Positions 1-63,895 of a stretch of 64,000 bases of DNA are shown one piece after another. A program made the position numbers and the translations under genes. The notes under the pieces are model-generated. The model ran no database searches, was not told the origin of the DNA, and saw only the letters and a program-made list of their open reading frames with translations. Position 1 is the first letter of the stretch. Every line of letters begins with the position of its first letter. Source of the stretch: Cyanidioschyzon merolae (taxonomy: Eukaryota); the NCBI GenBank assembly GCA_000091205.1, contig AP006493.2; one strand, given 5' to 3'.

Positions 1-1629
1 GGACAAGGGCAGACTAGTTGCGAGGCTTGCCCACCTGGTTTCTATACAAACCAAACAGGATCGACCTCGTGCAGTTCCTGCGCTCCAGGGCATTATCAGC
101 CCAGCACTGGCGCCGGCGGCTGCTTACCGTGTCCCGCTGGTACTCGGGCCGGCGCGTCCGGTGCTCCACGCTGCGATGCCTGCCCTTCGGGAACATTCTC
201 TAACGTGACAGGTGCTGCAGTCTGCATAGAATGCCCAGCAGGTTGGTACTCCCAGGGTAATAGTACAAAGTGTATCGCTTGCGACACAGGGAGTTACGCG
301 CAGTTCAATGCCAGCGGCTCATGCACAGAAGCGCCACCGGGGAGTTTTGTCAACAGTACTGGAGCGGCGTACTTCCAGTATTGTCCACCGGGAACATTTT
401 CAAACCGGAGCGGTGCATCCAAGTGCGAACCATGTGAAACAGGAACCTTCGTGACTTATCTGGGCGCGACATCGTGCACAGCGTGCCGTGCGGGCTACTC
501 CGCGCCTGCCAACGGCTCTGTGAACTGCACCGTTTGTCCGGCCGGTACATTTGCGTATACAGCCCCGGACGCTGCTGGGCTTGGGCGAGGGGCGTCCACA
601 TGCAAGCCCTGCCCAAAAGGGACTTTTAATCAATACGAGGCGCATACGAAGTGTGAGCCTGCTCCCAAGGGAGGCTACGTGAGCACTGACGGATCCACGA
701 AATATGAAGTGTGCTCGCCTGGGATGTATTCAGATTCCTCGGGTGCTTTTGTCTGCGAGCCGTGTCCGAACGGGTATATGAGCGCCAACAGCTCCGCAAC
801 TTCTTGCGTCAAATGCCCCGCAAACACGTATTCAGCGAACAGAACCGGTTCAACGGCGTGCAAACCGTGCCCAACTTTGGCGTACTTTGAGAGTGTCGTC
901 GTGCCTCAGTACCGCGTCTGCAGTCCGAATGCGGCATCCGTTTTCGCAATCATTGCCGTTATTCTTGCTGGAATCCTACTTGCCATGCTCGTTTGGTACC
1001 TTGCTCGCCGCTACAGAGCGTACAGAGGGACAAAGCCTAACAAACGGGAACAAGATGTTGCTTCATCTGCTCCGCGCTCCGCGGAGGTGACCCACCGCCG
1101 CAAGTCGCGATCAGTATTGCGCCGTGGTAGCGATGACGGAGAAGTGCACCCAATGGACACCGTTTCAACGTTTGCAGCAATTCCCGTGTCAAGAGACGAA
1201 TTGGAAAGCAAATTCAGGACGCATCGCTCCTTTTCCGAGGCGATAGAGCCGGTCACGCCGGATCAACCGCAGCGCCGAATATCAAGATACAGTCGCTCGG
1301 TTTCAGCTTCGAGATTCGGAATCCTTCTGGCATCCACTGCAGCATCTGGAGAGGGACGCTCCCAAAGTCTCACCCGGAAACGTCTATCATTCGCTACAGA
1401 GCAAGCGGCACGGGAGAGTGCCCACGGAGACGATGCAGCTTCCGACACGGACGATATTGTCCCGCTGCCGGGCAGCACACCCCAGCACCTGGCAGGAAAT
1501 ACTCCGCGAAAGCAGATTACGTTCGCAACTCCACAAAAAGAGCCAAAGTGGATTAGGGTCAGGACGGAGGAAGGTGCATATTACTTGCTGAATCGCCTGA
1601 ACGGAGAAATGTACGCGATCGGACCCTGA
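1..1629 (+). CDS. 5'-partial gene for a cysteine-rich repeat membrane protein (ephrin-receptor-like / TNFR-like Cys repeats, one TM helix, basic cytoplasmic tail)
   Basis: The frame is open from base 1, so the gene is truncated at the window edge. It contains >15 tandem repeats of the pattern C..C..G.[FY]....G...C..C ('CEACPPGFY', 'CIECPAGWY', 'CTVCPAGTF', 'CEPCPNGYM'). A hydrophobic stretch 'VFAIIAVILAGILLAMLVWYL' is followed by RRYRAYRG. Stop TGA at 1627-1629. Confidence 0.55.
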   Translation, partial: GQGQTSCEACPPGFYTNQTGSTSCSSCAPGHYQPSTGAGGCLPCPAGTRAGASGAPRCDACPSGTFSNVTGAAVCIECPAGWYSQGNSTKCIACDTGSYAQFNASGSCTEAPPGSFVNSTGAAYFQYCPPGTFSNRSGASKCEPCETGTFVTYLGATSCTACRAGYSAPANGSVNCTVCPAGTFAYTAPDAAGLGRGASTCKPCPKGTFNQYEAHTKCEPAPKGGYVSTDGSTKYEVCSPGMYSDSSGAFVCEPCPNGYMSANSSATSCVKCPANTYSANRTGSTACKPCPTLAYFESVVVPQYRVCSPNAASVFAIIAVILAGILLAMLVWYLARRYRAYRGTKPNKREQDVASSAPRSAEVTHRRKSRSVLRRGSDDGEVHPMDTVSTFAAIPVSRDELESKFRTHRSFSEAIEPVTPDQPQRRISRYSRSVSASRFGILLASTAASGEGRSQSLTRKRLSFATEQAARESAHGDDAASDTDDIVPLPGSTPQHLAGNTPRKQITFATPQKEPKWIRVRTEEGAYYLLNRLNGEMYAIGP

Positions 1630-1675
1630 TTCATGGAGCATGGCGCATCGCTTAAAGTCGGATGCCATTGGCAGA

Positions 1676-2869
1676 CTATCCCCCGGCAGGATTCGGGAAC
1701 GCCGCCCGCGGAGTGCCTTCATCTATGTCTGATTTCGGCGTGTACGCTTCTGTTGAGGCAGCACCGGAGCTCGTTCGCACGGCGTCGGCTGCAAAAGGGT
1801 GCATGCTCATGATGAGAAGGTCCAGCTCCGCCAAACCGTGTATCCTTTGAGCGTGGAATAGCAGATTAGCCTTTTGTGCGAAAGGACGGCCGCAATCCAA
1901 AACCGGGCAACGGAAGCGTATTTCCCTCAGATGCACGGCTCTGTAGTGCGTGTTTGCGTTTCCTTTCTGAGAGAATCTTCTACCACAGCCCGGATACGGG
2001 CAGCCGAATGGCTTTTCTCGCTCGTGAACTGTTCTTATGTGAACCTGCAAATTCCCACTCAGGGTAAAACGCCGCCCGCAGCCCGAAAAAGGACACACGT
2101 GCTTTCCAAACTGGCCCCGCTGCGCACCGGGTGGCAAATTCGAGCACCTTCGTTTGCGGCGAGGCTGCAGGGAAGTCCCCGAGTGATAACGCTGATCCAA
2201 TGTTATTAGACGTGCGGCTTCTGAATCGATCCTGCCGAGCCACGTTCCGGTCGGAGCTGACCGTGGCGTTGCCGGAAAGCGACTCAGTGGCGAGCTTTCG
2301 GAGATGCTTGACATTACATTTCCACTGGATTCATCGCACTCGAGAGCAAACAGCTCCGCTCCCGAGACGGCCAGCGCATCGGTCGTTCGACTTGTCGATG
2401 GCGCACTGTGGGGAATGCTATCTTGTGAAGGCGAGTCTAATGTCGATGCGCCAGGTGCGGTGCACACCGAACTGATGTCCTCTGACGCGCATCGACTTAG
2501 AGGTCGACTCGTTTCAAAGGAGGGCGACCACAAGTTCGCGACCGGAAAGGCTGGAGCCGAAAGCGGCGCGCACGGGATCCCCGTCTCGTGTAGCAGAGCT
2601 TGGGTCCCGCTGGTCACGGAGACCGACAGCTCTCTCCAGGGAGGCCTCCTAGTGCTCTTTCCGACATTCGCTTGCCTAACTGTACCTTTCGGGGGTACAT
2701 TCTGTTCATGATCCTCAAGGAGATCAGCTATGTGCACGCGTAGATCGTGTTCTGAGAAAGCCGCGCGAAAGGGTTCCGCTCCAATGCCGCTCGCACTCGG
2801 CTGTTCAGAAGACGTTCCTCGAGCGTCGCTGGGCGTCACCGCTTCCATCCCCTGAGCTGTGTCACTCAC
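1676..2869 (-). CDS. C2H2 zinc-finger protein (three tandem fingers in C-terminal half)
   Basis: Classical C-x2-4-C...H-x3-5-H spacing three times in a row: 'HVCPFSGCGRRFTLSGNLQVHIRTVH', 'FGCPYPGCGRRFSQKGNANTHYRAVH', 'FRCPVLDCGRPFAQKANLLFHAQRIH'. The true start may be an internal Met. Confidence 0.5.
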   Translation of the reverse strand: MSDTAQGMEAVTPSDARGTSSEQPSASGIGAEPFRAAFSEHDLRVHIADLLEDHEQNVPPKGTVRQANVGKSTRRPPWRELSVSVTSGTQALLHETGIPCAPLSAPAFPVANLWSPSFETSRPLSRCASEDISSVCTAPGASTLDSPSQDSIPHSAPSTSRTTDALAVSGAELFALECDESSGNVMSSISESSPLSRFPATPRSAPTGTWLGRIDSEAARLITLDQRYHSGTSLQPRRKRRCSNLPPGAQRGQFGKHVCPFSGCGRRFTLSGNLQVHIRTVHEREKPFGCPYPGCGRRFSQKGNANTHYRAVHLREIRFRCPVLDCGRPFAQKANLLFHAQRIHGLAELDLLIMSMHPFAADAVRTSSGAASTEAYTPKSDIDEGTPRAAFPNPAGG

Positions 2870-4417
2870 TGAACAGGTGGCCCACGAAACGTGGAAGCGT
2901 TAAAAAGCAAAGATATCAACTAAACCAATGATAAACACAGAAAAGTCAAAGAAGACGCTTACAGCCCCTTCAAGCGGGACTGCCTCCGCGATTCAGAGCA
3001 CAGCAAGTCTCAAACCTGCTACGTCCTTCGAACCTTCCTTCTCGGGGCACCTCGTGCTTCTACCAACCCTCAACGGTCTTTTAAGACGCACGAAGCGCAC
3101 CAGGAGCTCGAATCTCTAACGAACAGAGCCCGAAAATGGATCTTTATCGTGTGTCTCTTTCAGGCGCCGCCTGCATCTGTGCGGGTTGTCATGTCGACCA
3201 GGCCGATTTCATGGCGGATGGCAGGGGCGCGGCTGCGAATCGAACGGAGGGCTGTGCGAAGCGCAGGCCCCGACCTATTTCTACGGCTGCGCATATGGAC
3301 ACGTGTCAGGGAAAACGATCTCCGCGCGTGCACTCCAATTCTGGCAGGCTGGTGCGTCACGGTCACATTGCTGCTCCACGCTCATGTCGATCGCGCTGCG
3401 TTCGCTGCTGCTTGACGTGACGCGGTATCGGTCGTGAGGGACAGATGGAGACGCAGAAGTAGGCACTGTGCACGAGATGCTCCACAGGTGCGGGACACGT
3501 TTAGATGTAACTCGAGACCCTAATTGGGAAATATATCAAACAAGAGATTGTGTGTCCCAAGTGCAAAGGCGCCCAAGACTCTCACGTTCGAGTGCGAGAT
3601 TTTCTCGTCGCTGAGAAACACTAGGTTTGCACCCAGAGGAGACGAGTAAAACTGTGTGCTTTGAGACGTGTAGCTTGGTTCCTGTGGAAGCCTTGTCTAT
3701 AAGACTTTGACATACGCATGCGACCGCGCCATTTTTCCCGGTCGTTGACTGACGAAGCTCGACAGTTCGACTTCCTTACCTGTAGAAAATTAACGACTCA
3801 CTCTGCACCTGCGCACTGCTGTACGTCATGGTTGCGCAGGCTGTACCGCGCATGAATACCAATTAAGCAAATAGGTAAGCTCGCTTCAACTATTACTGTA
3901 GTTGGAGGATGGCAACGGTTTCGATGAAAAGCAGAGCACAGGCCTGTGGGCTATGCCCTCGGGAGCTGTAGGACTTCGATCTGCAGCCGTGGAAAAGTAA
4001 AGCGGGGCACTGTGCTGCATGCTTTTGTTCATGTCTACTGATATTCTTTCCGAATTGTTTTCAGAGTTACTGCGTCGACATTCAAAGTGCAGCCGCAAGA
4101 GCACACGGCTCTGTACGGAGGTTTGCGATGATCCGGCGTCGTTTCGAGTCGCTCATTCAACTCGCTGTCGTTGGAACTCGTTCCGCCACCGGAATCACGA
4201 TGCTTTGCGACGCTCTCGAACGAAGATTCGTAAAATAACCGATCTGGTTATCCTGTTTGTACGCACAAGCCGTATCTTCACAGTTCCTTAATTGGAGCAT
4301 GCTCATATTACACGTTCTTCAAATTTTCAATCTTTCTAGTTAAAGGCAACTCGTGGGCGCAGCAATGCGATCCTCTGAATATACGAGGAAAACTACCAAT
4401 CGTCTTTGACGACTTTT

Positions 4418-27323: not shown

Positions 27324-28348
27324 TTATTTCATAAACAGCATATGCATGACAGTGGAGCGCAAAAATATCCGCGAACATGTAAGGTACTTATTTACCCGCG
27401 CACAGACGCCTCCCAGCCTCTTTTGACAGGCCAATTGCTGTCGTTTCAGCTCCTTTTTGTACAATTTGAGTCTGAGAAGCTGGTCGAAAAGGCTGGACCG
27501 CATCAGATCCGCGAGTCTCGGCATCAGCATCGCACATCGTCTGATATCGATGGCGGCGTTCAAGTCTCGGTTCAGAGACTCCATGATTTTATTGACGCTG
27601 GTTGAACTCACCAATGCAATGATTGCTGCGGCCTGTGCACTTTGCGAGACTGCAGTCACGTTATCGGCTCGTCGGGCAGATTCCTTTCCCAGACGATAGC
27701 CACTGTTCGATTGCATCCTCTTCGTCACTCGCGATTTATCGCTGGATGGTCGGCGACGAGAGAATTTTTTGTCGAAATCCGAGATACCGGGCCTCCAGGA
27801 CCCTCAACTTCGATGCCCATAGGCGTCCACTGGATTTTTTATTTCTTCAAAATGAACGCATTTGTTGATTCCCTCAGGTGCGGAGCTTCGCGGAGCAAGA
27901 AGGACCCTCTGAAGAGAGATGCAATGTGCCCTGGTCTGTCAAAGAGTGCTCAAAGCTTCAGCGATTCGCTCAGTTGAACGATCAGTATGTTTTACGATAG
28001 AAAACACTCTTTCGATACGGTTGAATCACGGTGGGCATGTAGGAATGAAAAGCAGCTCTATCCCTAGAGAATGAGCAAACGCACGAGCGCAATCGGACTG
28101 GTCGAGTGCCACATAGTCCAGTTGAAGGATGTCTCCAGATTTCACGTGAAAAGTTCTCAATGATTCGTCAAAGTGGTTTGTGCTGCTGTACGAGCGCTCT
28201 CTACGAGCGAAACTGAGTCCGTTACTTGAATCCAGTGCAGCTCGAACAGAGGACGATGTCGTCGTCCTTTTCGAGTTCGCTCATACACACAACGGGCGCC
28301 CAGCTCCGCGAGTGCCCATATGCGCTCCGACCGTTTCATCCGGAGCAT
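27324..28348 (-). pseudogene. degenerate TnpB/Fanzor-like copy (RuvC-II-like block at about 28.2 kb, RuvC-III block at about 27.5 kb)
   Basis: 28157..28348(-) 'ERIWALAELGARCVYERTRKG' aligns with 'ADRLLAEAINRTKTLVVEFGNG' and 'ADRVLAEDIAQRKRVITHETE' of other copies. 27324..27728(-) 'SVNKIMESLNRDLNAAIDIRRCAML' closely matches the RuvC-III 'HRDLHAAINIRKCAVL' of the 39.5-41.6 kb copy. Confidence 0.4.
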
Positions 28349-34754: not shown

Positions 34755-35029
34755 TAGCCTGATACAATGCCTGACAAAAGCACACGGTGGCTACACTCCA
34801 AGTCGACAACGGTGAACGGACGGAGAACTCCGTCTCCAGCGTTCAGATGCATGATCCATGCACGATCCGACGACGGCGCTGACGGGATTGTGCGCTCGGC
34901 GTATCGCGCTGTACGGCGGCTGCGGAAGCGTCGCGCGCCTGACGCCGCCGCCAGCGCGATACGCCGATTGTTTTTCATTACGAGATGTTTACTTAGGCCA
35001 GCGTTCTCCGATTGAGCGCATTGTTCTTT

Positions 35030-38000
35030 TCTTACTTTTTTGTGTTATTTTTTCAGTGCGCGATAAGGCATCTATAAAACCCCCTCCCTCCAAGTTACAT
35101 ACCCTTTACTGATTCCAGGATATTCTGGTCGTTTCATACGTCCTATCGAGTGTGCCTAGTACCTGCAGTTCCGTATTCGCCTTTGCACCGTACATGCTAG
35201 AGCAGATAGTTCATCGAGCTAGAACGGCGTTGCAGTGCCACACAGAGGACGTCGGCTCGAGGTGTGCTTCACCCGGCGTAGAATCGGGTCTCATTGTCTG
35301 TCTGTGCTCGGACAGTCTGCGGATGCAGGCTTGCCTTCGCTGCCCGACACGCTGGAGAAACTTGGTTGTTAGGATAAATCCTGGGAGCCGCCTCTCTCCT
35401 TCGTGATCTTGCATGGAATGCGTTGTTGTCGGTCGGCAATGCGGGTTTGTGCTTGACACCCACCATAGTGGGTAGGCGCAGAGAGCGCACTGAGCCCGTG
35501 TGCGCATCCGATTCGTTGGACCTTACGCCTAGAAGGTAGCATGTGAGTTTGTTCGCCACTAATGAGCGCTGAGGCTCGGTTAGCGGACCACCAGTTGCCA
35601 GTGCTACACTCAGAGTGAGTGTCCGGCCTTGGACTATCACGGTGATGCCAAGCTGCTGCTGTCCTTCAAGGAGCTCGCTGCGCGGCTGTTTCCAGCGCGG
35701 GCACTGTAAGCCTAAATATGTCAGCGTCTCGGGGGTCTCGTCTCCACAGCAGGGACAGTGTGATTCCCAGTGCGATTCCAGTGTTCCTATACGGCTTAGA
35801 GCCGGTGATGGTCGCCAGAAGCCACCAACGCGGATTTTCGCGAGCCACTGGGTACCTCGAGCAAGTCCCGGGAACTCCAGCGCCTCCCACCAGTACTTGC
35901 GTGTGTATGCTAGGTTGTAGTTCCGATATAGAGTCAAGCTGGCGTTACGGGCCCGACTGGTTCCGTGTCTACGTTCCCATATTGTTGTTTGGACGGTTCG
36001 CTTGAGGCGGCGGGAGCCTTGTACATTCCTGGGGAACGACTGGAGCGTGTTGTCTCCTAAGAGGCGCTTCAGCCAAATCTGCGTCGATTTCATCCAAGTG
36101 TTCTTGCGGCGCGTTGGGGTCTGCATGAAACTCCGACTCAAAGAGGTGCGCATGGTGGGCCCTTTTGGCCCACACACGTGCCTGGCAGCCTGCTGCTATC
36201 GCCTCTATCGAGGGTATTTCGAGTTCAAGTCCGAGTGCCAGGCAGGTTGGTCGCTCTGCTTTGCATTGAGCATCCAACAACAACGAGTCGCATTGCCCTG
36301 TTGGCGGCTGTCTGCAGACGTGAGGCGTTTGTGTGCTTCATGCCGCACCATTCAGCACCACAGGTCGCAGGCTGGATGATACACATCCTTGGTGCGCTGG
36401 TACGGATTGCTAAGCGGATAGAGGGGTCGGATAGGACTGGGCGTGCGATCGCTGTACGTCTGTGCATCTTGGCGATCATCTCGTCGATGTGTGCCTTTTC
36501 GTCGAGCGTCGGCGTGCGACAGACCCTCCAGGTAGCGATATTTTTCCACGATCGGAACTTCCTGATTCTGCAACCGCGACGAGCGATTGCGAATGCTCTG
36601 CGAGTCTCCATGGATGACCGCGACGCCGCACTTCGATGCTGCAATGCTCATCTCCCAGCAATCGGCCCAGGCGCTGACTTGTTCCATGCTAGCCGCAAGC
36701 GTTTCCGGGGCGGGTGCCAACAGCACGACATCGTCCGCAACTAGACGGCCTGCGAGGCGGTTTCTATGTGAGGGCTCCTCATCGGGCATCTCCACAGTTT
36801 ATCCGCGGCACCTCAAGCCCGTATTGTCTGCAGTTGTTCAGCAGATCGTTGATGAAGATGTTGAAAAGGAGCGAGGATGCGCGGTCGCCCTGTCGCAGTC
36901 CACGGCGCATTCTTATCGAAGGGGTTCTTGAGCCGTCGCCCAGTCGGATGCGCATCCATGAGTCTGCATAGAGCGCACGGAAGAACGCCAAGCACTTTTC
37001 GGAGACTCCGCCGCGTTCCATCTTGAGAAATGGAGCCTCGTGCGGGACCGTATCAAAGGCCTTTTGAAAGTCGATGAAGCATACGTAAGTTGGTTGTTGG
37101 CCGCTAATGGAGCGACGTTGCACCACTTCAGTTAGGGTCAGGGCATGGCTCATGCACTCCTCGCGGCTCCGGAATCCATCCTGTTCTGGGGCGAAGAACT
37201 TGCGTTCCTCGAGGCCCCTCTGGATCCAGTTCGTGAGGCTGGCGCAAAGTAGCTTCATGATTGACGGGATGAGGCGCATAGTCCGGTAGTTGCTCACGTC
37301 TGTGTCTGTGGGTTTGGGAGTCCTTTTTTAGGATCGGTACGACCTCGACAGTCCTCGGTACATCCGGGATGTACGCCTCTTCGAACATGCGTTGGATGAG
37401 CTCCAGAAGGCGTTTGCTTAAGATTGTGTCAGGTTCATCTGGTATCGATATTGTCCCTGTTGTCCCGTCTTTTGGGGTCGCCAGTCTCATCCACTCCGCA
37501 GGGATACCGTCGATGCCAGGTGTTTTGCGGTTGCTTGAGCATAGCAGGGTCCGAACAGATTCAGGCCAGAAGATTGGGTCGTTCCATTCCGGTACCGGTT
37601 CGAGGCGCCGTAGTTCCGCAGCATATTGGTGCCGATAGATTCGGTTTTGGCAGTGCCCAGTTGCGTCTTCATGCAGCTCTGGCCCGTGGTCCGTCCAGGC
37701 CTCATTCACTGAGGCACGCTCCGTCCTCAGCGCTTCCTCATAAACGATTGGTGTGAGTCCCAGGCACTTTTTTGGTGGGTCAAGTCTCGATCGAATATAG
37801 CGCCATGTCTCATCTTCGTTGGTGCTCTCTAGCATAGATTTCGCCAGGGAGGCGATTCTGCGGTTTCGATCCTCTCGTTTGTCTTCTCTGGAAAGTTTCT
37901 TCTTTCTTTTGATAGCTTCTTCATGTTGCGCCTGTGGCGCCGGTAGCGCTGCCTTCGCTTCCATGTCTCCGGCGTTTGCGCGTATGGCGGTGCGGTTGAC

Positions 38001-38150
38001 GATCTTGTTAAGTCGGTGGCATTCATCAATTCGAGTTTTGGTACGTCGTTTCAGGTACTGAGGTTTGCAACTGTTGTGTTCTGGTGCAAGCAGTCCCAGC
38101 TCTCCGGCAATCTTCTGATTCCCATCTACAAAATTGCTTCCCAATGGGTT
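35030..38150 (-). mobile_element. non-LTR retrotransposon (LINE), 5'-truncated, no endonuclease domain seen, ORF2 broken by frameshifts; A-rich 3' end on the minus strand at about 35030-35060
   Basis: Minus-strand ORFs in order: 37128..38144 ('KTPGIDGIPAEWMRL', RT domain 0/1), 36779..37297 ('FIDFQKAFDTVPH', 'GLRQGDRASSLLFNIFINDL', RT 2-4), 36352..36795 ('LVADDVVLL', RT 5 / xADD box), 35269..36177 (C-terminal 'HCPCCGDETPETLTYLGLQCPRW', a CCHC-like motif typical of L1/CR1-type ORF2 tails). The plus strand at 35021-35060 is T-rich, i.e. a poly(A)-like tail on the element strand. Confidence 0.7.
36352..38144 (-). pseudogene. LINE reverse-transcriptase coding region, split into three overlapping frames
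   Basis: See the mobile-element entry. RT motifs 0-5 are distributed over ORFs 37128..38144, 36779..37297 and 36352..36795 in different frames. Confidence 0.6.
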
Positions 38151-39495
38151 TAAAGATTTGTATGCACGGCTTTTCGGATCTACAGCGCTGTGAGTAGGTG
38201 ACTGGGTTTGGTGGCAGCTTTCTTGAGTTCCCGCTGGGGGTGCCCTTTCGGGGGATGACTTGTGATGGGCTCGTTTGGGAGTTCTTCTTTCTATTCTTCT
38301 GTTATTTTTTCTTCTTCTTCTTCGGGCTCTTTCCTGAGCTACTTTCTCTGGTTACTCTTCTGGCATGTGGATCATGATGCCATTGTGTCTTTTCTTCTGT
38401 ATCCCGTTGGGCCTTTTTCGCTAATATAGATTCCTCGACTTGTATCAGTTTTTCATTACTGTACTGGTAATTCGATATCTCGTCGTCTAGTATCGAGGCT
38501 ATCCCACAAATATTCCATGATGCGAAACCTATCGAGTCGTAGCGCGTAAGGGAATAAGAATAGCGCTGCGGTACTCCAGAGATACGTTGTCGATTTAGAT
38601 GCACCCTCCACGGGGTGTGTGAACGCACATGCCACCAGCGCCTCCTGCATTCCAGTCGTTCACTGAGTGTCTGCTGCAGCGCTAGCGTAGAATCAGATGT
38701 ACATTAGTCAAGGTCGATTCAAATGCGACCTTTATCTTGCCGGACGTGTGAAGCTACCCGCAACCACAGGGGATACTCTATGAACCACCCTTTCAGCGGC
38801 TTCGTATCCGCTCCCCAAATACACAGGCGGGCAAGTCGCTTACTCCACTTTCGACAGCGAACATGCTGCCAGCCGTCTTCAAAAGTAGCCGCCGAAATTG
38901 TTTCCAAAGTTGAGGTAGCTACCCAAGGTAGGAGGTAAAACTGAGCCCGAGTTCGAGGATGGATCCAGGATTTGCGCCCGAACCTGCAGCGTTGTTTCGG
39001 GAGTGGCGGATGACTACCCAGAACTCTCGTCATCATTCTCTGCTGCTATTGCCGCCGCCATCCGTTCGATGCGGTCAAGGTCCCTGGAGAGGGCTTCCTT
39101 CCTCGTCGCCCGAGCACCCCGCGTTAACCCACTTTCAGAGTTTCTCCGCAAAAACCGGACTTCTTAGGCGCGCATACTGTATGGGGCTTTTAAGATAGTT
39201 GTTCTTTAATAAATAATTTGTTACTAGTTTGCATCACGCTCGGTGAGCGCACCTCGGAGATCCGGCAGGCATGAGACGCTACGCGTATGTCGCCGTTGAA
39301 GGGGAACGCGATCCTGATCTCTAGTATGTAGATCTAATGTAAAAGTTGTATTTTCGTTAACTTCATAGCCAAGTACAGTTTTTCAGTTCGTTTTTGTTTC
39401 AAACTTCATACAAGTCTAGTCAAGTGTTTTTTTGCAGTATATAACAGAAGCGTTCACAGAGCGTTGTTTTCCAAAAAAACTAAAAAAGGAAAGTT

Positions 39496-41570
39496 ATGAA
39501 AACGCAAGTCGACGATCCTGGAGGCCCAGGGTCGCCGGCTGCCAGAAAAAAACAAAAAACAGTACCGAGTCCAGAAGAAAAGAAAGAGAAGAAGAACCGA
39601 AACGGGGACCCAACGTCGAAGGCGACAAGAAAGACGACTTTACGACGAGATGGTGGTGAAAACCTTTCTTCTTGGACATATCAAGGATCCGTACAGGGAA
39701 AAGTTGCGAGACGTTATCGAAATACGTGTCGACTCGTACTCCAAGAGTATTGTCAAGGCGTCGTCAGGACTGATGCATTTGGCGAGGGAGATGTATCGCG
39801 ACGTGACGGACATGGAAACGGTCGAGATTCCAGGCGAGTTCTTCGACAAGGCCTTTATTCGTCACGTGATGCATGGCACAGAGGAAGCGCGGAAGGAAAA
39901 ATGAGCTAGTGCATGCCCACCACGAAAACTTCGCGGAATTCTGCTTCGAGAGTAATCGATACAGCGGTGACGGAAATATTTACACATACGGGGTAATGAA
40001 GTACATTACGAACCTGAAGAACCATTTGACAGAGAACCTCGAACGTTTTATGATACGCGCCGTAGTTGCACTCTACCCGGGCCTCTCTCGCAACGGAAAA
40101 TGGGCGATTATCAATGGCATCAAGAACGATCGATAGTATGAAGATGAGGTCGAATTCGTCGACAAGAAGGCGTCACGCAGGAGCACGAATGAGGATTCCG
40201 TCATCCGCGCGGTTATACAAGAGCACCGTGCGGTACTGGGGTTGGCAAATCCAACAGACAAGATATCAGAGTTGAAAAAAGATAAGGAAAAATACTATCG
40301 CCTCGTCCTGCGCTATTTCGTGTTTCTGGATCGAGAGCTCGAACGCAAGGCGGAAATGAAGCTGAATGTAGAGACAAATGAAGAGTGGGAGAGACGGAAG
40401 GCTTTCCTAATGAGTAAGTGCCTCAGCGTCGTTCCGTTATGCAATATCCAGTCACATTTCGTGATTATCGACTCCACAGTCCTTCATGGCATAATGAGGG
40501 ACATCAGTCCGGTGTTCAATGTTAGCAGGGAGGACTTCACCGGCGAAAATCGGGAGACGTACTAGATGAGTATCTTCGATTTCAAACGTATCAAAGTCAG
40601 CAGGCAAAAGTTGTTCACTAGGATGATCGAAACCGATGGAGTAGCCATGTGTGTACACGATCGGCGGTTGAAGAAAGATCGTCCAGTTCCGCCCTCGGCT
40701 GCGCCCATCACGAAGGATGAAGAAAAGGAACAGGCGGATCCTGTGACGCAGGAGGTGCAGGACAACGACTTTGTTGTTTGCGCGGACCCTGGGAATACGA
40801 ATATCATAACCATTGCAGCACCGAAGCGTGCAGAAGATGGTACTGACGGCAACTTGCGTCAGAAAGACATGCGTCTTTTGAGGTTCTCGAGAGCGAGATA
40901 CTATCGAGAATCCGGTATAATGAATGCGAGGAAGAGAATTGCTGCATGGAATTCAGGAATGAAGGATCACCTGGAAGCTTTGAGCGAGGTGACGAGCCGA
41001 GGAGCGGACTTTGAAGCTTTTCGGAAATTCATGGAAGTTCGCATTGCGCATTGGGATGCGCTATGGGAGGAGTATACCAAGCCCCGGTGGGCTCGTTTGC
41101 GAATGAATCTATACGGTGGGAAGCAGCGGGCGTTCGCGAATTTTTTCAATGAGTTGAGTGCCCTCAAGGAGGATGAAAGTCAGAGGCCCGTAGTAGCATA
41201 CGGAGCAGGGCGCTGGAAGACCCAAAAAGGGACTACTCCAGCTCCAAAGACGAGGGTGTACAAGGAGTGTGCACGGCGTTTTGTTACATTACCTGTAGAT
41301 GAGTTCCGAACGTCCCATACACACCACGAGCTGGATTGTACACTTCAGAGGGTCGAAATGGAAAAGTGCCAGAGGAGCACTGAGGAAATACCAAAGTACG
41401 GTGCGCTGACGGAGGAGCAAATGTAAAGGAGGGCGAAAGTTCGTGGACTACTCGCACTGGTGAGTACAACTCCCAACGGCACGAAACGTATGGAGTTTGT
41501 GCATCGTGACTTACATGCCGCTATCAATATCAGGAAATGTGCGGTGCTGGAGAAAAGACCTCCAGAGTAG
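39496..41570 (+). pseudogene. Fanzor-type (eukaryotic TnpB-like) RuvC nuclease gene, most complete copy; reading frame interrupted by 2 frameshifts and 3 in-frame stops (or unrecognised introns)
   Basis: 39496.. 'MKTQVDDPGGPGSPAARKKQKTVPSPEEKKEKKNRNG' (NLS-like). From 39650 the frame changes twice. The final frame then carries '[18 protein letters not shown]' (RuvC-I, GxDxG-like), 'QRPVVAYGAGRWKTQKG' (RuvC-II region), 'VDEFRTSHTHHELDC...EKCQR' (degenerate Zn finger) and 'MEFVHRDLHAAINIRKCAVL' (RuvC-III). In-frame stops lie at TAG 40134-40136, TAG 40563-40565 and TAA 41424-41426. The last is supported by the ORF track (40242..40565 and 40566..41426 are contiguous, same frame). Confidence 0.65.
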
Positions 41571-41781
41571 ACACGAGAGAGTTTTGTGGGACACCCTCTC
41601 AAAGTGGAACTATATGAGAAGAAGTTGAAACCAGTAGTAGGTGGCCGGTCCAAAACGACGGGGAGGCCTCTGCACGTCAATTGGAGACTTCTTGTCCAGG
41701 GCGCGGTTGCTGCCACTACTGGACACCGCTGGCGTCGTTCGACTTTCGATCGGTGCGCAATCGCGGCAGCGTCTCGACAGT

Positions 41782-41795
41782 CGCGATGCATCGCG
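41782..41795. repeat. 14-bp perfect palindrome (cgcgatgcatcgcg) within GC-rich structured tail downstream of the Fanzor ORF
   Basis: Self-complementary when read directly. Embedded in 'cgcaatcgcggcagcgtctcgacagtcgcgatgcatcgcgtgctttcgattcgagg'. Confidence 0.8.
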
Positions 41796-41925
41796 TGCTT
41801 TCGATTCGAGGATGCCCGGTACCTGACCGGAGAGCACCATAGCAAAACGTTTCGACTGTTTATTCACCTTCCAGGCGTCTGGGTTTGTTCGTGTTTGCGA
41901 TAAATCTAGTGCGAAAAAAATAAAC

Positions 41926-42729
41926 ATGTCACCACAGGATACTTGCTGTCCGCCTGATAGCTGGCCCGCGCTCAAGGTCGACTACAAACCAAAGGGTAAG
42001 CTAGAGGATATCGGGAAAGGCCTGAAGGCGTACGTCGTTGGCAACGGGCCGCGAGCGGTTATCGCACTGAACGATGTATTCGGGATTGAAAGTGGACATT
42101 CAAAGGAAATTTGTGATGCAATTGCGGACAAGGGTTTCACTGTGGTCTTCCCGGACGTATTTCGGGGGAAACCGCTGCAAGTCAGCGATATGAGCAAGCT
42201 ATTCGACGAGCTCCCTGGCTGGGCGAAGCAGTTCGACTACGAGCCGGCTTTGCGTAAGGATGTGGTCGAGGTTATCTTGCCTTATCTCCACGATAAGCTT
42301 GGGTTCAAGAGCAACGACCAGATCGCGCTCGCAGGGTTTTGCTGGGGCGCGTTCATGTTATTCCACCTGGCAGGCGATACGAAGCTTCCCGGTGGGCCGT
42401 TTGCCTGCGGTGTCTCGTTCCATCCCAGTGTCCAGATTGAGGGCGTCTTTCAGCGGGATCCGCTGCAATTGATCGATCGGGCAACTTGCCCGCAGCTTCT
42501 GCTTCCCTCTGCAGGCGAGCCAGATTATATGAAGGAGGAAGGGGACGCGATCAAGAAGCTTCGAGCGAAGCCTTTCGGAGCTAGCTGCGGGGTGAAGACT
42601 TTCCCGAGCATGCAGCACGGCTGGGTGAACCGTGGAGACCGGAATGATCCGCAGGTTGTGAAGGAGGCTCAGGAAGCCCTTCAACTTGCAGTTGATTTCA
42701 TGATGCGACACACGAAGCCGAAAGCATGA
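41926..42729 (+). CDS. dienelactone hydrolase family protein (carboxymethylenebutenolidase-like alpha/beta hydrolase)
   Basis: 'AVIALNDVFGIESGHSKEICDAIADKGFTVVFPDVFRG' and nucleophile elbow 'LAGFCWGAFM' (G-x-C-x-G, DLH-type Cys nucleophile), with a downstream His in 'MQHGW'. 267 aa. Confidence 0.65.
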   Translation: MSPQDTCCPPDSWPALKVDYKPKGKLEDIGKGLKAYVVGNGPRAVIALNDVFGIESGHSKEICDAIADKGFTVVFPDVFRGKPLQVSDMSKLFDELPGWAKQFDYEPALRKDVVEVILPYLHDKLGFKSNDQIALAGFCWGAFMLFHLAGDTKLPGGPFACGVSFHPSVQIEGVFQRDPLQLIDRATCPQLLLPSAGEPDYMKEEGDAIKKLRAKPFGASCGVKTFPSMQHGWVNRGDRNDPQVVKEAQEALQLAVDFMMRHTKPKA

Positions 42730-49825: not shown

Positions 49826-51297
49826 TCACCACCCAGCGCTACAGCTTCTGGTGCACTGCAACAGCTTCTGGTGCACTGCAACAGCTTCTGGTGCACTGCA
49901 ACAGCTTCTGGTGCACTTCAACAGCTTCTGGTGCACTTCAACAGCTTCTGGTGCGAAGCGCAAGCACGAAGGGCGCTTGTACTGAGCGTTCGCCGGCGAT
50001 GATCCGGGGCGCCGGCACGCCGCATGAAGAGGTGCTCGGGTGGATCGCGGGATACTGCACCTATGGCTGGAGTGGGGATCTGACGCCCGTGAAAGAAATT
50101 GGACCTGCATAACCACCCAGACGTTATAGATGAGGACAACGATACATGTTTGATGGCCATGGAGGGTGAATATGTATGTATTTACGCGCAGAGGCCTCGC
50201 AGCCTTTTTTGACTGGCCGCCTTCGATCAGTTTCAGCTTCTCGTTGTATCCGATGAGCCTGAGAGGCTGCCCAACCAAGTCACATCGCGTCAGCTCTTGG
50301 GGTATCGTTTTCAGCACCGCACATAGCCTGATATTGAGTACAGCGTTAAAATCCCGGTTCACGAACATCTCGCGTTTATAGCCTCTGTTAGAACGCGCCA
50401 TTGCAAAGAAAGCTGGAACTCGTGCCCTCATTGCCATTTGGTGCTCAGTCAGCTCTCTGTCATTTTCTATCGCACAAGCGATCCACTGGCGTGTCTCTAT
50501 GCCGGCCGTCTGAAGTGCATATGCCCGCTCGTCCCAGAGATTTTTTAATCTTTGAAAGCGGCCGCACTTGTACACACCCATAGGTGAGGAACTTCTCGGA
50601 AAGACAAGGATTTACGCAGGATAGACGAAAGATGCTTCGGTGCTACCGTGGTGGAAGCTTTTGCGATTCGCCCATCGGAGCTATTATGATATGTGTCATG
50701 ATAGAAAACGCTCCTTCTATAGATATGGACCTCGGAGCCTAAGGAGGAATGAAAAGCAGCTCTGTCCCCGATAGAATCAGCAAAAGCTCGAAAGAGAATG
50801 TTGAAAGGCCACGGTGTCCAATAGATGCACGTCGCAAGAAGTCAGAGAACAATCTTCCATGATTCGACGAGTTGGGAGCTAATGTATACGCCCTCTCTAC
50901 GAGAGAAACTGAGGCCGACAAATGCATCTACCAAAGTTCGAACAGATGATGATGTCGGTGCTCTCTTCGAGTTCGTTGTACGTACAAAGAACTCCGTCTC
51001 TGCGAATACCCGTATACGCTTCGACCGTCTCATCCGAGGAAAGTATGATCGACTGAAAAAAAACAACCGACGTTCCTGTGCTTCATGCAGATCGCAACGT
51101 TCCAGGAACACTAGAGTTGCGATTTCGATGGACCATGACCGGGTGTGAACCAGGACTCTTTTTATGCGACTGTATCCGAGTGCTTTCAGGGCTGCACGAA
51201 CAAGATCTTGAGAATCAGAAATGCCACTGCTGGCTATGATCATCGCTTTCGCTTTTCTTACGATGATCAACGGGTCGTTTTCTACCATTGACCGCAA
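49826..51297 (-). pseudogene. degenerate TnpB/Fanzor-like copy (RuvC-II-like block at about 51.1 kb, zinc-finger remnant and RuvC-III block at about 50.3 kb)
   Basis: 50842..51297(-) 'VRAALKALGYSRIKRVLVHTRSWS' (RuvC-II-like). 49826..50581(-) 'GVYKCGRF...REMFVNRDFNAVLNIRLCAVLK' (RuvC-III). The antisense-frame signature 'STAHSLILSTALKSRFTNI' (50166..50381+) matches the antisense of the 39.5-41.6 kb copy ('STAHFLILIAACKSRCTN'). Confidence 0.4.
49841..49953. repeat. 20-bp minisatellite (acagcttctggtgcactgca) x about 5.5
   Basis: Units align exactly with the 10-base print groups, with the last copies c->t variants. Lies between the SerRS ORF and the TnpB-like remnant. Confidence 0.9.
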
Positions 51298-55480: not shown

Positions 55481-56916
55481 CAGGAGCCGATGCTGGCGAG
55501 CGGTCGCCTACAAACCGCCACACAGACGGCGTCGTTCCTCACCTCATCCTGCGTTGAAACATTTCGAGGCTTCTCCATCGCGCTTGCTGATGCCCTGTCC
55601 TTGGACAGCGCCGCCTAGCACAGCACGGGAGAAGCACCGGCGTACGCATCTGGGATTCGTGTTCAGCTGCTCTTTGTAGCAGTTTGTTTTCCGCGGCCTC
55701 ATCCAGCGGCATGCGGCCTGTCTCTGCGTCGCCAACAACCGTTTCTACGCCCACGGACACGTTTCGAAAACACGACTCGCTCGCGTCCCCGGCACCGAGA
55801 CAAGCCGGACGCCGTGAGCGATAGCGTAGCACCGTCCCCGAGAGACTCTCGCCTCCTTGATGGACGTCGCGTCCGAATGGTCGCTGAACCGTGATGCCTG
55901 GCTTCCCGGCATCTCGCGCTACTCCGTTTCCGTAAATAGCGCTGGGCAGCGCATACCAGACTGCCTCCGGGAACGTGAGCGCCCCCCGCTCCCTCAACAG
56001 TCTAGTGGATATGGTCCATGGTTACGAGACCAGGACCCATGAGGGTACCCGCTGAGACACTCTTTGTCGCGTGTGGCCTTCCTGGTGCGCGATGCCCGGT
56101 CTATCTACGCAGCAACCAGGACACATTCGTACTGCTCCGCAGCGGGCATCGGCCGAGCTCGTCCAAGCTCTTTCGCCTACGCGCTCGGAGCCCAAAGACG
56201 TTTACAGCGACCACGGACACTGACCGAATATCACTTTGGATGTGCTCTGTGAGACCCAGGCCTGCGTCTCGAAACAGGACTCGATTTACGCCCATAGAGA
56301 TAGATGAAGAGCAAGTATTCAGGGCGGGCGTGGATCCCGAGTTCGAGTGCGTCACGACTGCCGCCGTGCCTCCAGCCCAGCGGGGCAGAACCGGCGATCA
56401 GCACCGCGAGCAGGTGTCGCTGCTCAGCCTGCTCCACGACTCGGTACCAGCGGGCGTCGTGCACCACACACACACCAGGAGGCGTACCAGCAGGTGCAGT
56501 GACTACCTCAGGGGCTATCTCGGCAATCAAAGCATCCTATCGAGCAGCGGCGGATGCTTCGTGCAGTGCACTCAGAGCGCCTATACGAGCGTCCGAATGC
56601 AGCACGCGGACGCTTTTCGACACAGGTACATGACACCGTGCTGCTGTCGCCAATGGCATCGATTGTGCGGAGCCAAGGAGCGTACATCCACACCGCCTAG
56701 TTCGGTGCGTCGGAAACGGGAATCATCGACGAGGCGCGCGGTATGCCTGAAACCTCTGGTACGGGGTGTGCTTTTGGAGCACACGGGCTGCACTCGTGCT
56801 CCTTCGATGCGAGCGTGCGACAGGCACAAGAATCGATTCCGTACAGATCCCGTCGACGAATGCACGACAACATACAAGTATCACGAACTGGGGTTCAGCC
56901 TAATCCAGTTCGAGAA

Positions 56917-57100
56917 GAAAAAGAGCATGAAACAGAGATCAATGCACGGGATGGTGTACGGGACGCCGAACGAACGTCAGATGGCGACAGCGTCAAAGTT
57001 CGGTGACCTCGTAGAGCCTGAAACAGAGACCAATGCACCAGGTGGTGTACGGGACGCCGAACGAACGTCAGATGGCGACAGCGTCAAAGTTCGGTGACCT
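56917..57100. repeat. 87-bp tandem duplication (2 units) inside repeat copy 1
   Basis: 'atgcac..ggtgtacgggacgccgaacgaacgtcagatggcgacagcgtcaaagttcggtgacctcgt' occurs twice consecutively, giving duplicated ORF text 'GVRDAERTSDGDSVKVR'. Confidence 0.8.
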
Positions 57101-61289: not shown

Positions 61290-63895
61290 AGTTGTGCATC
61301 TGGATATAATTATACAACTATATCCTATTTGTTTCCGTTCGTGTTCGCACAGGCACTCAATGCCCGGCACGCACCGCGAACGACTGGAGCACTGTCGCGC
61401 ACAGCTCTGATGCTGGCAAAGATAGCTCGCGATACGCCGCATTATTTCTACAAAGCAGTCATTCTATGGTCACTACGACAATACACCGCCTGTATCGTTA
61501 TCGGTATCCTGAACATCGTGCGCCCGCACCAAAACACGTTCAACAATCTCTACGCAACTGCCTACTCGCCAAGCCATTCCAGCTTATGCCTTCTCGAAGG
61601 AATGCCGCGCAACAGGCGCCAGCATCTGAGGTTCGCGTACCGTTGCATCGCACGACGACAACGAGACATTGAGGGTCAGCGCAGAAGGCAGGTTTCTGTG
61701 CGAGACCGTCGCGCTGCGCACATGACGCCGTCAATGGCGTCCCTCAAGGAGCATACATATCCCAGAAGCGACAGGAGTTCACCTCGCTCGATTCCAGTCC
61801 ACGACGGGAGCACTGCTTGGCCTGTATGCAGGCAACCAAAACGTGGCAATCCGCTATTCGCAAGGAAGCGACATGCGCGTACGACAAAAAGAACAGCACC
61901 AACAACAACAGCGGCAGCAGCAGCAGCAGCCCAGGAGCCGATGCTGGCGAGCGGTCGCCTGCAAACCGCCACACAGACGGCGTCGTTCCTCACCTCATCC
62001 TGCGTTGAAACATTTCGAGGCTTCTCCATCGCGCTTGCTGATGCCCTGTCCTTGGACAGCGCCGCCTAGCATAGCACGGGAGAAGCACCGGCGTAGGCAT
62101 CTGGGATTCGTGTTCAGCTGCTCTTTGTAGCAGTTTGTTTTCCGCGGCCTCATCCAGCCGCATGCGGCCTGTCTCTGCGTCGCCAACAACCGTTTCTACG
62201 CCCACGGACACGTTTCGAAAACACGACTCGCTCGCGTCCCCGGCACCGAGACAAGCCGGACGCCGTGAGCCAGAGCGTAGCACCGTCCCCGAGAGACTCT
62301 CGCCTCCTTGATGGACGTCGCGTCCGAATGGTCGCTGAACCGTGATGCCTGGCTTCCCGGCATCTCGCGCTACTCCGTTTCCGTGAATAGCGCTGGGCAG
62401 CGCATACCAGACTGCCTCCGGGAACGTGAGCGCCCCCCGCTCCCTCAACAGTCTAGTGGATATGGTCCATGGTTACGAGACCAGGACCCATGAGGGTACC
62501 CGCTGAGACACTCTTTCTCGCGTGTGGCCTTCCTGGTGCGCGATGCCCGGTCTCTGTACGCAGCAACCAGGACACATTCGTACTGCTCCGCAGCGGGCAT
62601 CGGCCGAGCTCGTCCAAGCTCTTTCGCCTACGCGCTCGGAGCCCAAAGACGTTTACAGCGACCACGGACACTGACCGAATATCACTTTGGATGCGCTTTG
62701 TGAGACACAGGCCTGCGTCTCGAACCAGGACTCGATTTACGCCCATAGAGATAGATGAAGAGCAAGTATTCAGGGCGGGCGTGGATCCCGAGTTCGAGTG
62801 CGTCACGACCGCCGCCGTGCCTCCAGCCCAGTAGGGCAGAGCCAGCGATCAGCACCGCGAGCAGGTGTCGCTGCTCAGCTTGCTCCACGACTCGGTACCA
62901 GCGGGCGTCGTGCACCACACACACCAGGAGGCGTACCAGCAGGTGCAGTGACTACCTCAGGGGCTATCTCGGCAATCAAAGCATCCTATCGAGCAGCGGC
63001 GGATGCTTCGTGCAGTGCACTCAGAGCGCCTATACGAGCGTCCGAATGCAGCACGCGGACGCTTTTCGACACAGGTACATGACACCGTGCTGCTGTCGCC
63101 AATGGCATCGATTGTGCGGAGCCAAGGAGCGTACATCCACACCGCCTAGTTCGGTGCGTCGGAAAAGGGAATCATCGACGAGGCGCGCGGTATGCCTGAA
63201 ACCTCTGGTACGGGGTGTGCTTTTGGAGCACACGGGCTGCACTCGTGCTCCTTCGATGCGAGCGTGCGACAGGCACAAGAATCGATTCCGTACAGATCCC
63301 GTCGACGAATGCACGACAACATACAAGTATCACGAACTGGGGTTCAGCCTAATCTAGTTCGAGAAGAAAAAGAGCATGAAACAGAGATCAATGCACGGGA
63401 TGGTGTACGGGACGCCGAACGAACGTCAGATGGCGACAGCGTCAAAGTTCGGTGACCTCGTAGAGCCTGAAACAGAGACCAATGCACCAGGTGGTGTACG
63501 GGACGCCAAACGAACGTCAGATGGCGACAGCGTGTAAGGTCGGTGACCTCGTTTGGTGCGAATGTGCCAGCACCTAGGCGCCCAGGCTCTTTCCATACTG
63601 CGACTTGAGCCGCTCGATCAACACTCGAAAGCGAGTCTTGGTTTGAGTCGAGCGAGCTTTCGACGCAGTCGTTCAGTACTCAGTATCGGTGCGCTGCTGA
63701 AACGCTGATGACGCTCGATGGAAAACTCAGTGGTCAGCAGAGAGGGAGTTGGATTCCAGACTGGAGCAAGGCACTGGTATGGTGCGGTTGGGAAATCCCG
63801 CAATGCGAGAGCGGCTTGGGTATGCTCTGAAGACGATGTTCTTTGCCAACAAGCGAACGATAATGATGCTCCTTTATTTGATGTTCGGTTGTCTA
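61290..63895. repeat. 2.6-kb dispersed direct repeat, copy 2 (includes 87-bp tandem at about 63368-63550)
   Basis: Collinear with 54840..57450. Similarity begins at 'ataattatacaactatatcctatttgtttccg' and ends at 'taatgatgctcc(g/t)ttatt(c/t)gatgttcg', and flanks on both sides are unrelated. Confidence 0.85.

Follow-up and report, generated by a model that had tools for sequence, protein, structure and literature searches.

The interrupted reading frame between positions 39496 and 41570 of the window (the whole stretch of 64,000 nucleotides of Cyanidioschyzon merolae DNA that was analysed) is, with a probability of about 95 %, a pseudogenised copy of CMe-1A, a multi-copy Fanzor1 family encoding a TnpB-like RuvC nuclease, and it now evolves neutrally. 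The ancestor of this copy had an ORF of about 734 codons in a single exon, and the copy found in the 10D reference has since lost 2 nt, gained 1 nt in a run of A and acquired three or four single-base nonsense mutations. The feature is of an ordinary, already known kind, the family having been described in 2013. Of the explanations that the initial annotation had left side by side, i.e. a young pseudogene, short introns or assembly errors, the pseudogene is the right one: the stops fall on conserved sense codons, the lesions recur across haplotypes and the polymorphism is neutral.

Identity of the element

The host is C. merolae, since three flanking proteins of the window, SerRS, a dienelactone hydrolase (DLH) and CMK101C, match the GenBank entries of strain 10D exactly (BAM80485.1, BAM80483.1 and BAM80487.1, respectively). 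CMe-1A is the single Fanzor1 family described in this species (Bao and Jurka 2013, PMC3627910). It was reported to number about 150 copies, which individually have about 80 % identity to a ~3.2-kb consensus, without terminal inverted repeats and with target-site duplications left undetermined, and to carry a single-exon ORF of 734 aa that is intact in some copies only (PMC3627910). The published consensus of 3169 bp was taken from the supplement of the same paper. Window positions 39247-41734 aligned with consensus positions 660-3145 at 86.9 % identity over 2490 nt (BLAST), i.e. ~2.49 kb at 87 % identity in the same organism, and a global alignment from the ATG gave 87.4 %. The consensus ORF is collinear with the window copy, the 2-nt deletion and the 1-nt insertion being its only indels, and the N-terminus, the RuvC motifs and the 3' end are all shared. 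The window copy differs from the consensus in two ways. Its 5' module of ~645 bp is missing and an inverted, RT-encoding non-LTR retrotransposon is joined there instead, and its ORF carries two indels and four stops.

A scan of a metagenome collection confirmed 378 stretches encoding relatives of the query, and 80 loci were fetched. Homology to 78 paralogous loci defines the element body as 39231-41757 on the plus strand, with a sharp start at 39231-39238 and an end at 41749-41753 (+CGTT). The published family description (copy number, divergence, absence of terminal inverted repeats, only some copies intact; PMC3627910) agrees with the 80 related loci studied here.

When the conceptual translation was used in a protein search, 83 relatives were obtained, none with an informative name; many were fragments 60-87 % identical to the query and a few were full-length at about 40 % identity. 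None of the 83 came from the NCBI annotation of 10D, and CMe-1A elements therefore appear to be unannotated there. The genome paper of 2007 gave only 8 'transposase-related' class II elements, with transposons making up 0.7 % of the genome (PMC1955436), in contrast to the CMe-1A copies, about 150 in number and each about 3 kb long (PMC3627910), and also to the 378 related stretches confirmed here.

Lesions of the reading frame and their origin

All three in-frame stops listed in the initial annotation were found at their positions and in one frame (coordinate mod 3 = 0, frame 0): TAG at 40134-40136, TAG at 40563-40565, followed by ATG at 40566, and TAA at 41424-41426 within ATGTAAAGG. Frame 0 closes at TAG 41568-41570, in the same frame as the three inner stops. 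With 4 stops in 566 codons, as against about 30 predicted by base composition and 11-35 counted in the remaining five frames, it is clearly a former coding frame. Upstream, the reading path starts in frame 1 at ATG 39496 and passes through frame 2 into frame 0. The two early frameshifts that had been claimed do exist, but the position of the first had to be adjusted from ~39650 to ~39608 in a DNA alignment of 24 non-redundant paralogues and the consensus, according to which the new frame merely has its first ATG at ~39650.

The lesions were compared with the family and with five syntenic metagenome haplotypes (L001, L002, L003, L005 and L006), which have an identity of 99.1-99.7 % to the window, with differences at 21-58 sites, and are taken to be naturally occurring relatives of strain 10D. 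The N-terminal tail, rich in Lys and Arg, is encoded in frame 1 from the ATG to the first frameshift (39496-39610) and matches the consensus N-terminus MEKEVEDPGGPVSPAAGKKRKTVPSPEE. Frameshift 1 is a deletion of 2 nt in a G/A run at about 39605-39608 relative to the 24 paralogues and the consensus, and is common to the five covering haplotypes. Frameshift 2 (39897-39901), which leads from frame 2 to frame 0, is a run of five A where the family has four (+1 nt), as seen in alignments to paralogues and consensus; it is identical in L001, L002, L003 and L005.

The first premature stop (TAG, 40134-40136) stands at consensus codon 214 (MAG), where the large majority of the 24 paralogues have AAG for Lys, and it is fixed in the five covering haplotypes. 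The second (TAG, 40563-40565) stands at codon 357, a nearly invariant Trp (TGG in the consensus and in 20 of 24 paralogues), and the third (TAA, 41424-41426) at codon 644, a Glu (GAA in the consensus and in 23 of 24 paralogues), where it cuts off RuvC-III; both are polymorphic. The residues flanking these stops are conserved and without gaps (DR-K-REDEVEFV, ENRETY-W-K and TEEQM-E-RRAKVRGLL, respectively). The TAG at 41568-41570 had been taken as the natural end of the gene, but in the alignment to the 734-codon consensus it falls on codon 692 (TTG, Leu), 42 codons before the consensus terminator, and it is fixed in all six haplotypes. Most paralogues have TCG, TGG or TTG here and 4 of 24 have TAG, so that the site is ambiguous, and the protein tail beyond it is weakly conserved; this TAG is probably a fourth premature stop. 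Every stop is one base change away from a sense codon (K, W, E or L) and no residues are missing nearby.

It had been proposed that short unrecognised introns remove the stops and that the gene is intact after splicing. The TAA at 41424 indeed sits in GTAAAG, and C. merolae does splice a few of its genes (introns in 0.5 % of genes, PMC1955436). However, the copy follows the single-exon consensus of 734 codons and the uninterrupted ORF of the paralogous locus L004 codon for codon; there is therefore nothing available to splice out, and any segment removed would take conserved residues with it. The GT of the supposed donor comes from the same G>T change that made the stop (paralogues read ATGGAAAGG), haplotype L006 has GAA at this site, and the -2 and +1 frameshifts are not repairable by introns. 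Collinearity thus refutes the intron option, to which we attach practically no weight. Errors of sequencing or assembly in the reference are hardly any more credible as the source of the stops and frameshifts. A change from A4 to A5 in homopolymer length is a typical error type, but the reference genome is finished and free of gaps (PMC1955436), and the same lesions recur in metagenomes of at least 6 samples that were assembled independently, which refutes this option too. The exact fragment ORF of 286 aa was present in 8 JGI metagenome contigs from at least 6 samples, each with the same pattern of 84/87/107/286-aa ORFs, and these assemblies are distinct haplotypes with 21-58 other differences from the window.

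Recoding, whether by stop-codon reassignment, read-through or programmed frameshifting, could in principle yield a full protein; nothing was found in its favour, although the dN/dS of 0.29 would be compatible with a gene functional until recently. It would, however, have to overcome two types of stop together with a -2 and a +1 shift, in a sequence whose polymorphism is neutral (31 nonsynonymous to 8 synonymous changes) and in which further stops are segregating. Conserved host genes of the window terminate at TAG, TAA and TGA alike: the 11 stop codons comprise 7 TGA, 3 TAG and 1 TAA. That a reassignment of TAG was unlikely had already been noted, and the 3 of 11 host genes ending in TAG bear this out. 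The chance that the locus is recoded is, in our judgement, negligible.

The pseudogene reading is carried further by the haplotypes. Both frameshifts, TAG 40134 and TAG 41568 are present in every covering haplotype. The stops at 40563 and 41424 are polymorphic, L005 having TTG (Leu) at the former and L006 the ancestral GAA at the latter. Additional stops were found in L003 (AAA>TAA at 40863) and in L006 (TGG>TGA at 41090). The word 'young' is thus only partly apt for this pseudogene: two of its stops still being polymorphic speaks for it, the fixation of the core lesions in all haplotypes sampled against it. The 39 single-base differences between haplotypes in the ORF comprise 31 nonsynonymous and 8 synonymous changes (79 % nonsynonymous, compared to a neutral expectation of 78 %), whereas the adjacent DLH gene shows 0 nonsynonymous to 4 synonymous (Fisher p=0.004) and the older divergence of the copy from the family consensus 92 to 79 (p=0.004). 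The lesions are real, of mutational origin and neutral at present. The population data illustrate, cleanly though on a small scale, how a transposon remnant gathers segregating nonsense alleles beside a constrained host gene. The independently assembled JGI metagenome loci keep DLH downstream of the remnant. The right end of the element is only about 170 bp upstream of the DLH (BAM80483.1) start codon (41757-41926), and the remnant occupies the DLH upstream region in all haplotypes seen.

The older divergence of the copy bears a clear coding signature. It amounts to 0.085, 0.069 and 0.151 at codon positions 1, 2 and 3, respectively, and the dN/dS against the family consensus, 0.29, equals that of the uninterrupted copy L004. 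Being no worse than L004 in this respect, the lineage of the window copy was thus for the most part shaped by purifying selection and lost constraint comparatively late in its history. Lesions aside, the sequence of the copy is not heavily decayed in look. Neither dN/dS nor the number of replacements at conserved positions (10 each in the window copy and in P0001, the protein of the uninterrupted paralogue) showed an excess in the window copy, and these two measures are therefore unusable as evidence of decay. An attempt to date the inactivation by counting stops, which arise from about 4.1 % of random changes, was rejected, as it conflicts with the low dN/dS.

Fanzor1 motifs, fold and the nuclease question

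The codons of the RuvC-I Asp (ADPGNTN, 40785-40787) and of the RuvC-II Glu (DEFRTS, 41301-41303) are retained, both in columns that are invariant in alignment A1. The RuvC-III Asp codon (HRDLHAAINI, in the family NRDFNAAINI; 41508-41510) lies downstream of the third stop. Parts of the Fanzor1 signature, D-X(125,275)-[TS][TS]-X-X-Zn finger-X(5,50)-RD (Bao and Jurka 2013, PMC3627910), occur in the right order in the window, with D at 40785, E-F-R-T-S at 41301-41315 and R-D at 41505-41510, and with spacings of about 175 aa from D to TS and about 66 aa from TS to RD. The Zn-finger cysteines are replaced by H-x-HH...C...C across the whole family. With two frameshifts and 3-4 premature stops, there is no uninterrupted ORF holding all three RuvC motifs. 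The longest ORF, of 286 aa (40566-41426), still includes the RuvC-I Asp and the RuvC-II Glu but not RuvC-III. Judging from its reading frames, the locus cannot give rise to a full-length protein, and with RuvC-III absent from the 286-aa ORF no active nuclease would be possible from it.

No Pfam family was recovered for the conceptual protein or for P0001 at E<=0.001-1. PDB sequences searched with a profile HMM yielded no Fanzor match, and a search by fold was therefore needed. The AlphaFold model of P0001 (pLDDT 73.8, pTM 0.66) had SpuFz, PpFz and GtFz as its top seven matches when compared with the PDB by Foldseek (E=1.7e-16 to 1.2e-13), the next matches being Cas12 proteins at E>=7e-3. A Fanzor1-like fold is thereby predicted for the family, via the model of P0001 rather than via the window copy. 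Compared to the solved Fanzor1 structures of SpuFz (8GKH/9CEU), PpFz (9CF1) and GtFz (9CER), the family has a similar fold (P0001 with SpuFz, E=1.7e-16, TM 0.54/0.64) and the same order of RuvC motifs, D...E...RD, whereas the sequence identity is only 12-15 % and H-x-HH...C...C takes the place of the C4 Zn finger. This similarity of fold suggests that the ancestor was an omega-RNA-guided nuclease. The window copy itself differs from the solved enzymes in that it cannot make the protein, and its omega RNA is putative.

The family also shares features with bacterial TnpB (IS200/IS605, IS607) and Cas12f: PF07282 (Cas12f1-like TNB domain) was found in 3 of 21 homologues, these being distant ones, the fold search gave weak Cas12f matches, and, as in bacterial TnpB elements, there is a subterminal hairpin at the right end. 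Unlike these, the element is eukaryotic, and at about 734 aa its protein is far longer. None of the CMe-1A copies examined had a TnpA partner beside it. In the linker that precedes RuvC-I, a unit of about 22 aa (..TKHEExKxAxPATQxVQDNDxxV..) is repeated in tandem, and its copy number varies among paralogues: the window (about 40690-40780) has 1 unit and P0001 (L004 4001-6259) about 5, at columns 447-546 of A1. The P0001 model is disordered at the linker (pLDDT below 50 for residues 373-471).

The initial annotation had expected this copy to decide whether the genome encodes an active nuclease. That expectation is unsupported, the copy being one of about 150, some of which were reported intact (PMC3627910). 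Among about 40 full-length paralogous elements in the fetched loci, an uninterrupted body ORF was found only in L004, and L048, an allele 99 % identical to L004, is broken by a stop. The protein cluster of P0001 includes members of 631 aa besides 752 aa; L004, the sole uninterrupted paralogue, is polymorphic for shortened alleles. No in-frame ATG is present in L004 upstream of MVVKTF, and the Lys/Arg-rich N-terminal tail may have been lost there. Since nearly all of the sampled paralogues are broken too, the window copy does not decide the question: the locus is evidence neither for nor against an active Fanzor in C. merolae, and a survey of all copies is needed. That one of about 150 copies of CMe-1A is a pseudogene matters little, as the 2013 description leads one to expect it (PMC3627910). 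The locus should not, however, be annotated as an intron-bearing gene.

Element ends and neighbouring remnants

Conserved blocks and a terminal hairpin are present in the 3' region of the element and at its right end (41571-41757, plus strand), the expected place of a putative omega RNA scaffold. The right end is sharp. In the family consensus it consists of the hairpin CGTTCGA-CTT-TCGAACG followed by GCGTT; in the window both the hairpin and the end motif are mutated (...TCGATCGGTGCG). When 19 right ends were folded jointly with RNAalifold, the covariation term was +0.51 and compensatory changes were present in 3 of 29 pairs. This covariation is weak and an omega RNA is therefore not claimed here, its presence being only what the type of family would suggest. 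An Rfam search of 38500-42500 gave no match. It could be argued that, although the protein gene is dead, the locus is still of use through its non-coding part, its 3' end being transcribed into an omega-RNA-like guide that would serve an intact Fanzor of another copy in trans, or that it is mobilised in trans. The 3' region retains the conserved blocks of the family and most of the terminal hairpin, and according to Bao and Jurka some CMe-1A copies are intact (PMC3627910). Nevertheless, we regard this as improbable, since the covariation of the structure is weak, the window hairpin and end motif have changed, and the divergence of 41651-41735 (0.14-0.17) is no lower than that of third codon positions (0.15).

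At the other end, the left end of the Fanzor body is abutted by the 5' end of a degraded and frameshifted non-LTR retrotransposon on the minus strand (34971-39230; RVT_1, PF00078, at 36779-37297, E=9.3e-16). The 5' module of 635 bp related to TE-N2_CMe is absent at this junction, where homology begins at ~645-660 of the consensus. The window retrotransposon has a 3' tail that is only 72 % similar to module positions 84-298 and is located 4 kb from the junction. A target-site duplication was not found, nor was Fanzor-end sequence on the far side of the retrotransposon, where the flank is unique. Similarity that would let the consensus 5' module continue into the 5' end of the retrotransposon was within shuffled controls.

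The 5' junction of the Fanzor body lies at one fixed place (39231 in the window), and the partner joined there differs among copies, as recorded at the window (34971-39231), L004, L024, L057, L036, L075 and others. The partner is the canonical CMe-1A module of 645 bp at 18 loci, an unrelated 'class A' sequence of variable leftward extent at 10, an inverted RT-encoding non-LTR element at 5, with internal cut points that differ between window/L024/L057 and L004/L048, and an inverted retrotransposon tail at 3, these counts including redundant assemblies of the same locus. It is conceivable, but rather doubtful, that this pattern reflects a functional partnership, in which a site-specific retrotransposon would target the Fanzor left end or the Fanzor element would be mobilised via the retrotransposon tail. 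If true, either reading bears on the unresolved classification of CMe-1A.

Further Fanzor-related sequences were seen elsewhere in the window. An open ORF of 359 aa at 56018-57097 (plus strand) is a remnant that matched the family profile with 97.6 % probability at 23 % identity (hhalign); its motifs are degraded, with DECTTT for DEFRTS, and it has no Pfam match. Three short fragments, at 62827-63462 (plus), 50184-50530 (minus) and 27403-27863 (minus), are 26-51 % identical at the protein level or 68-74 % at the DNA level.
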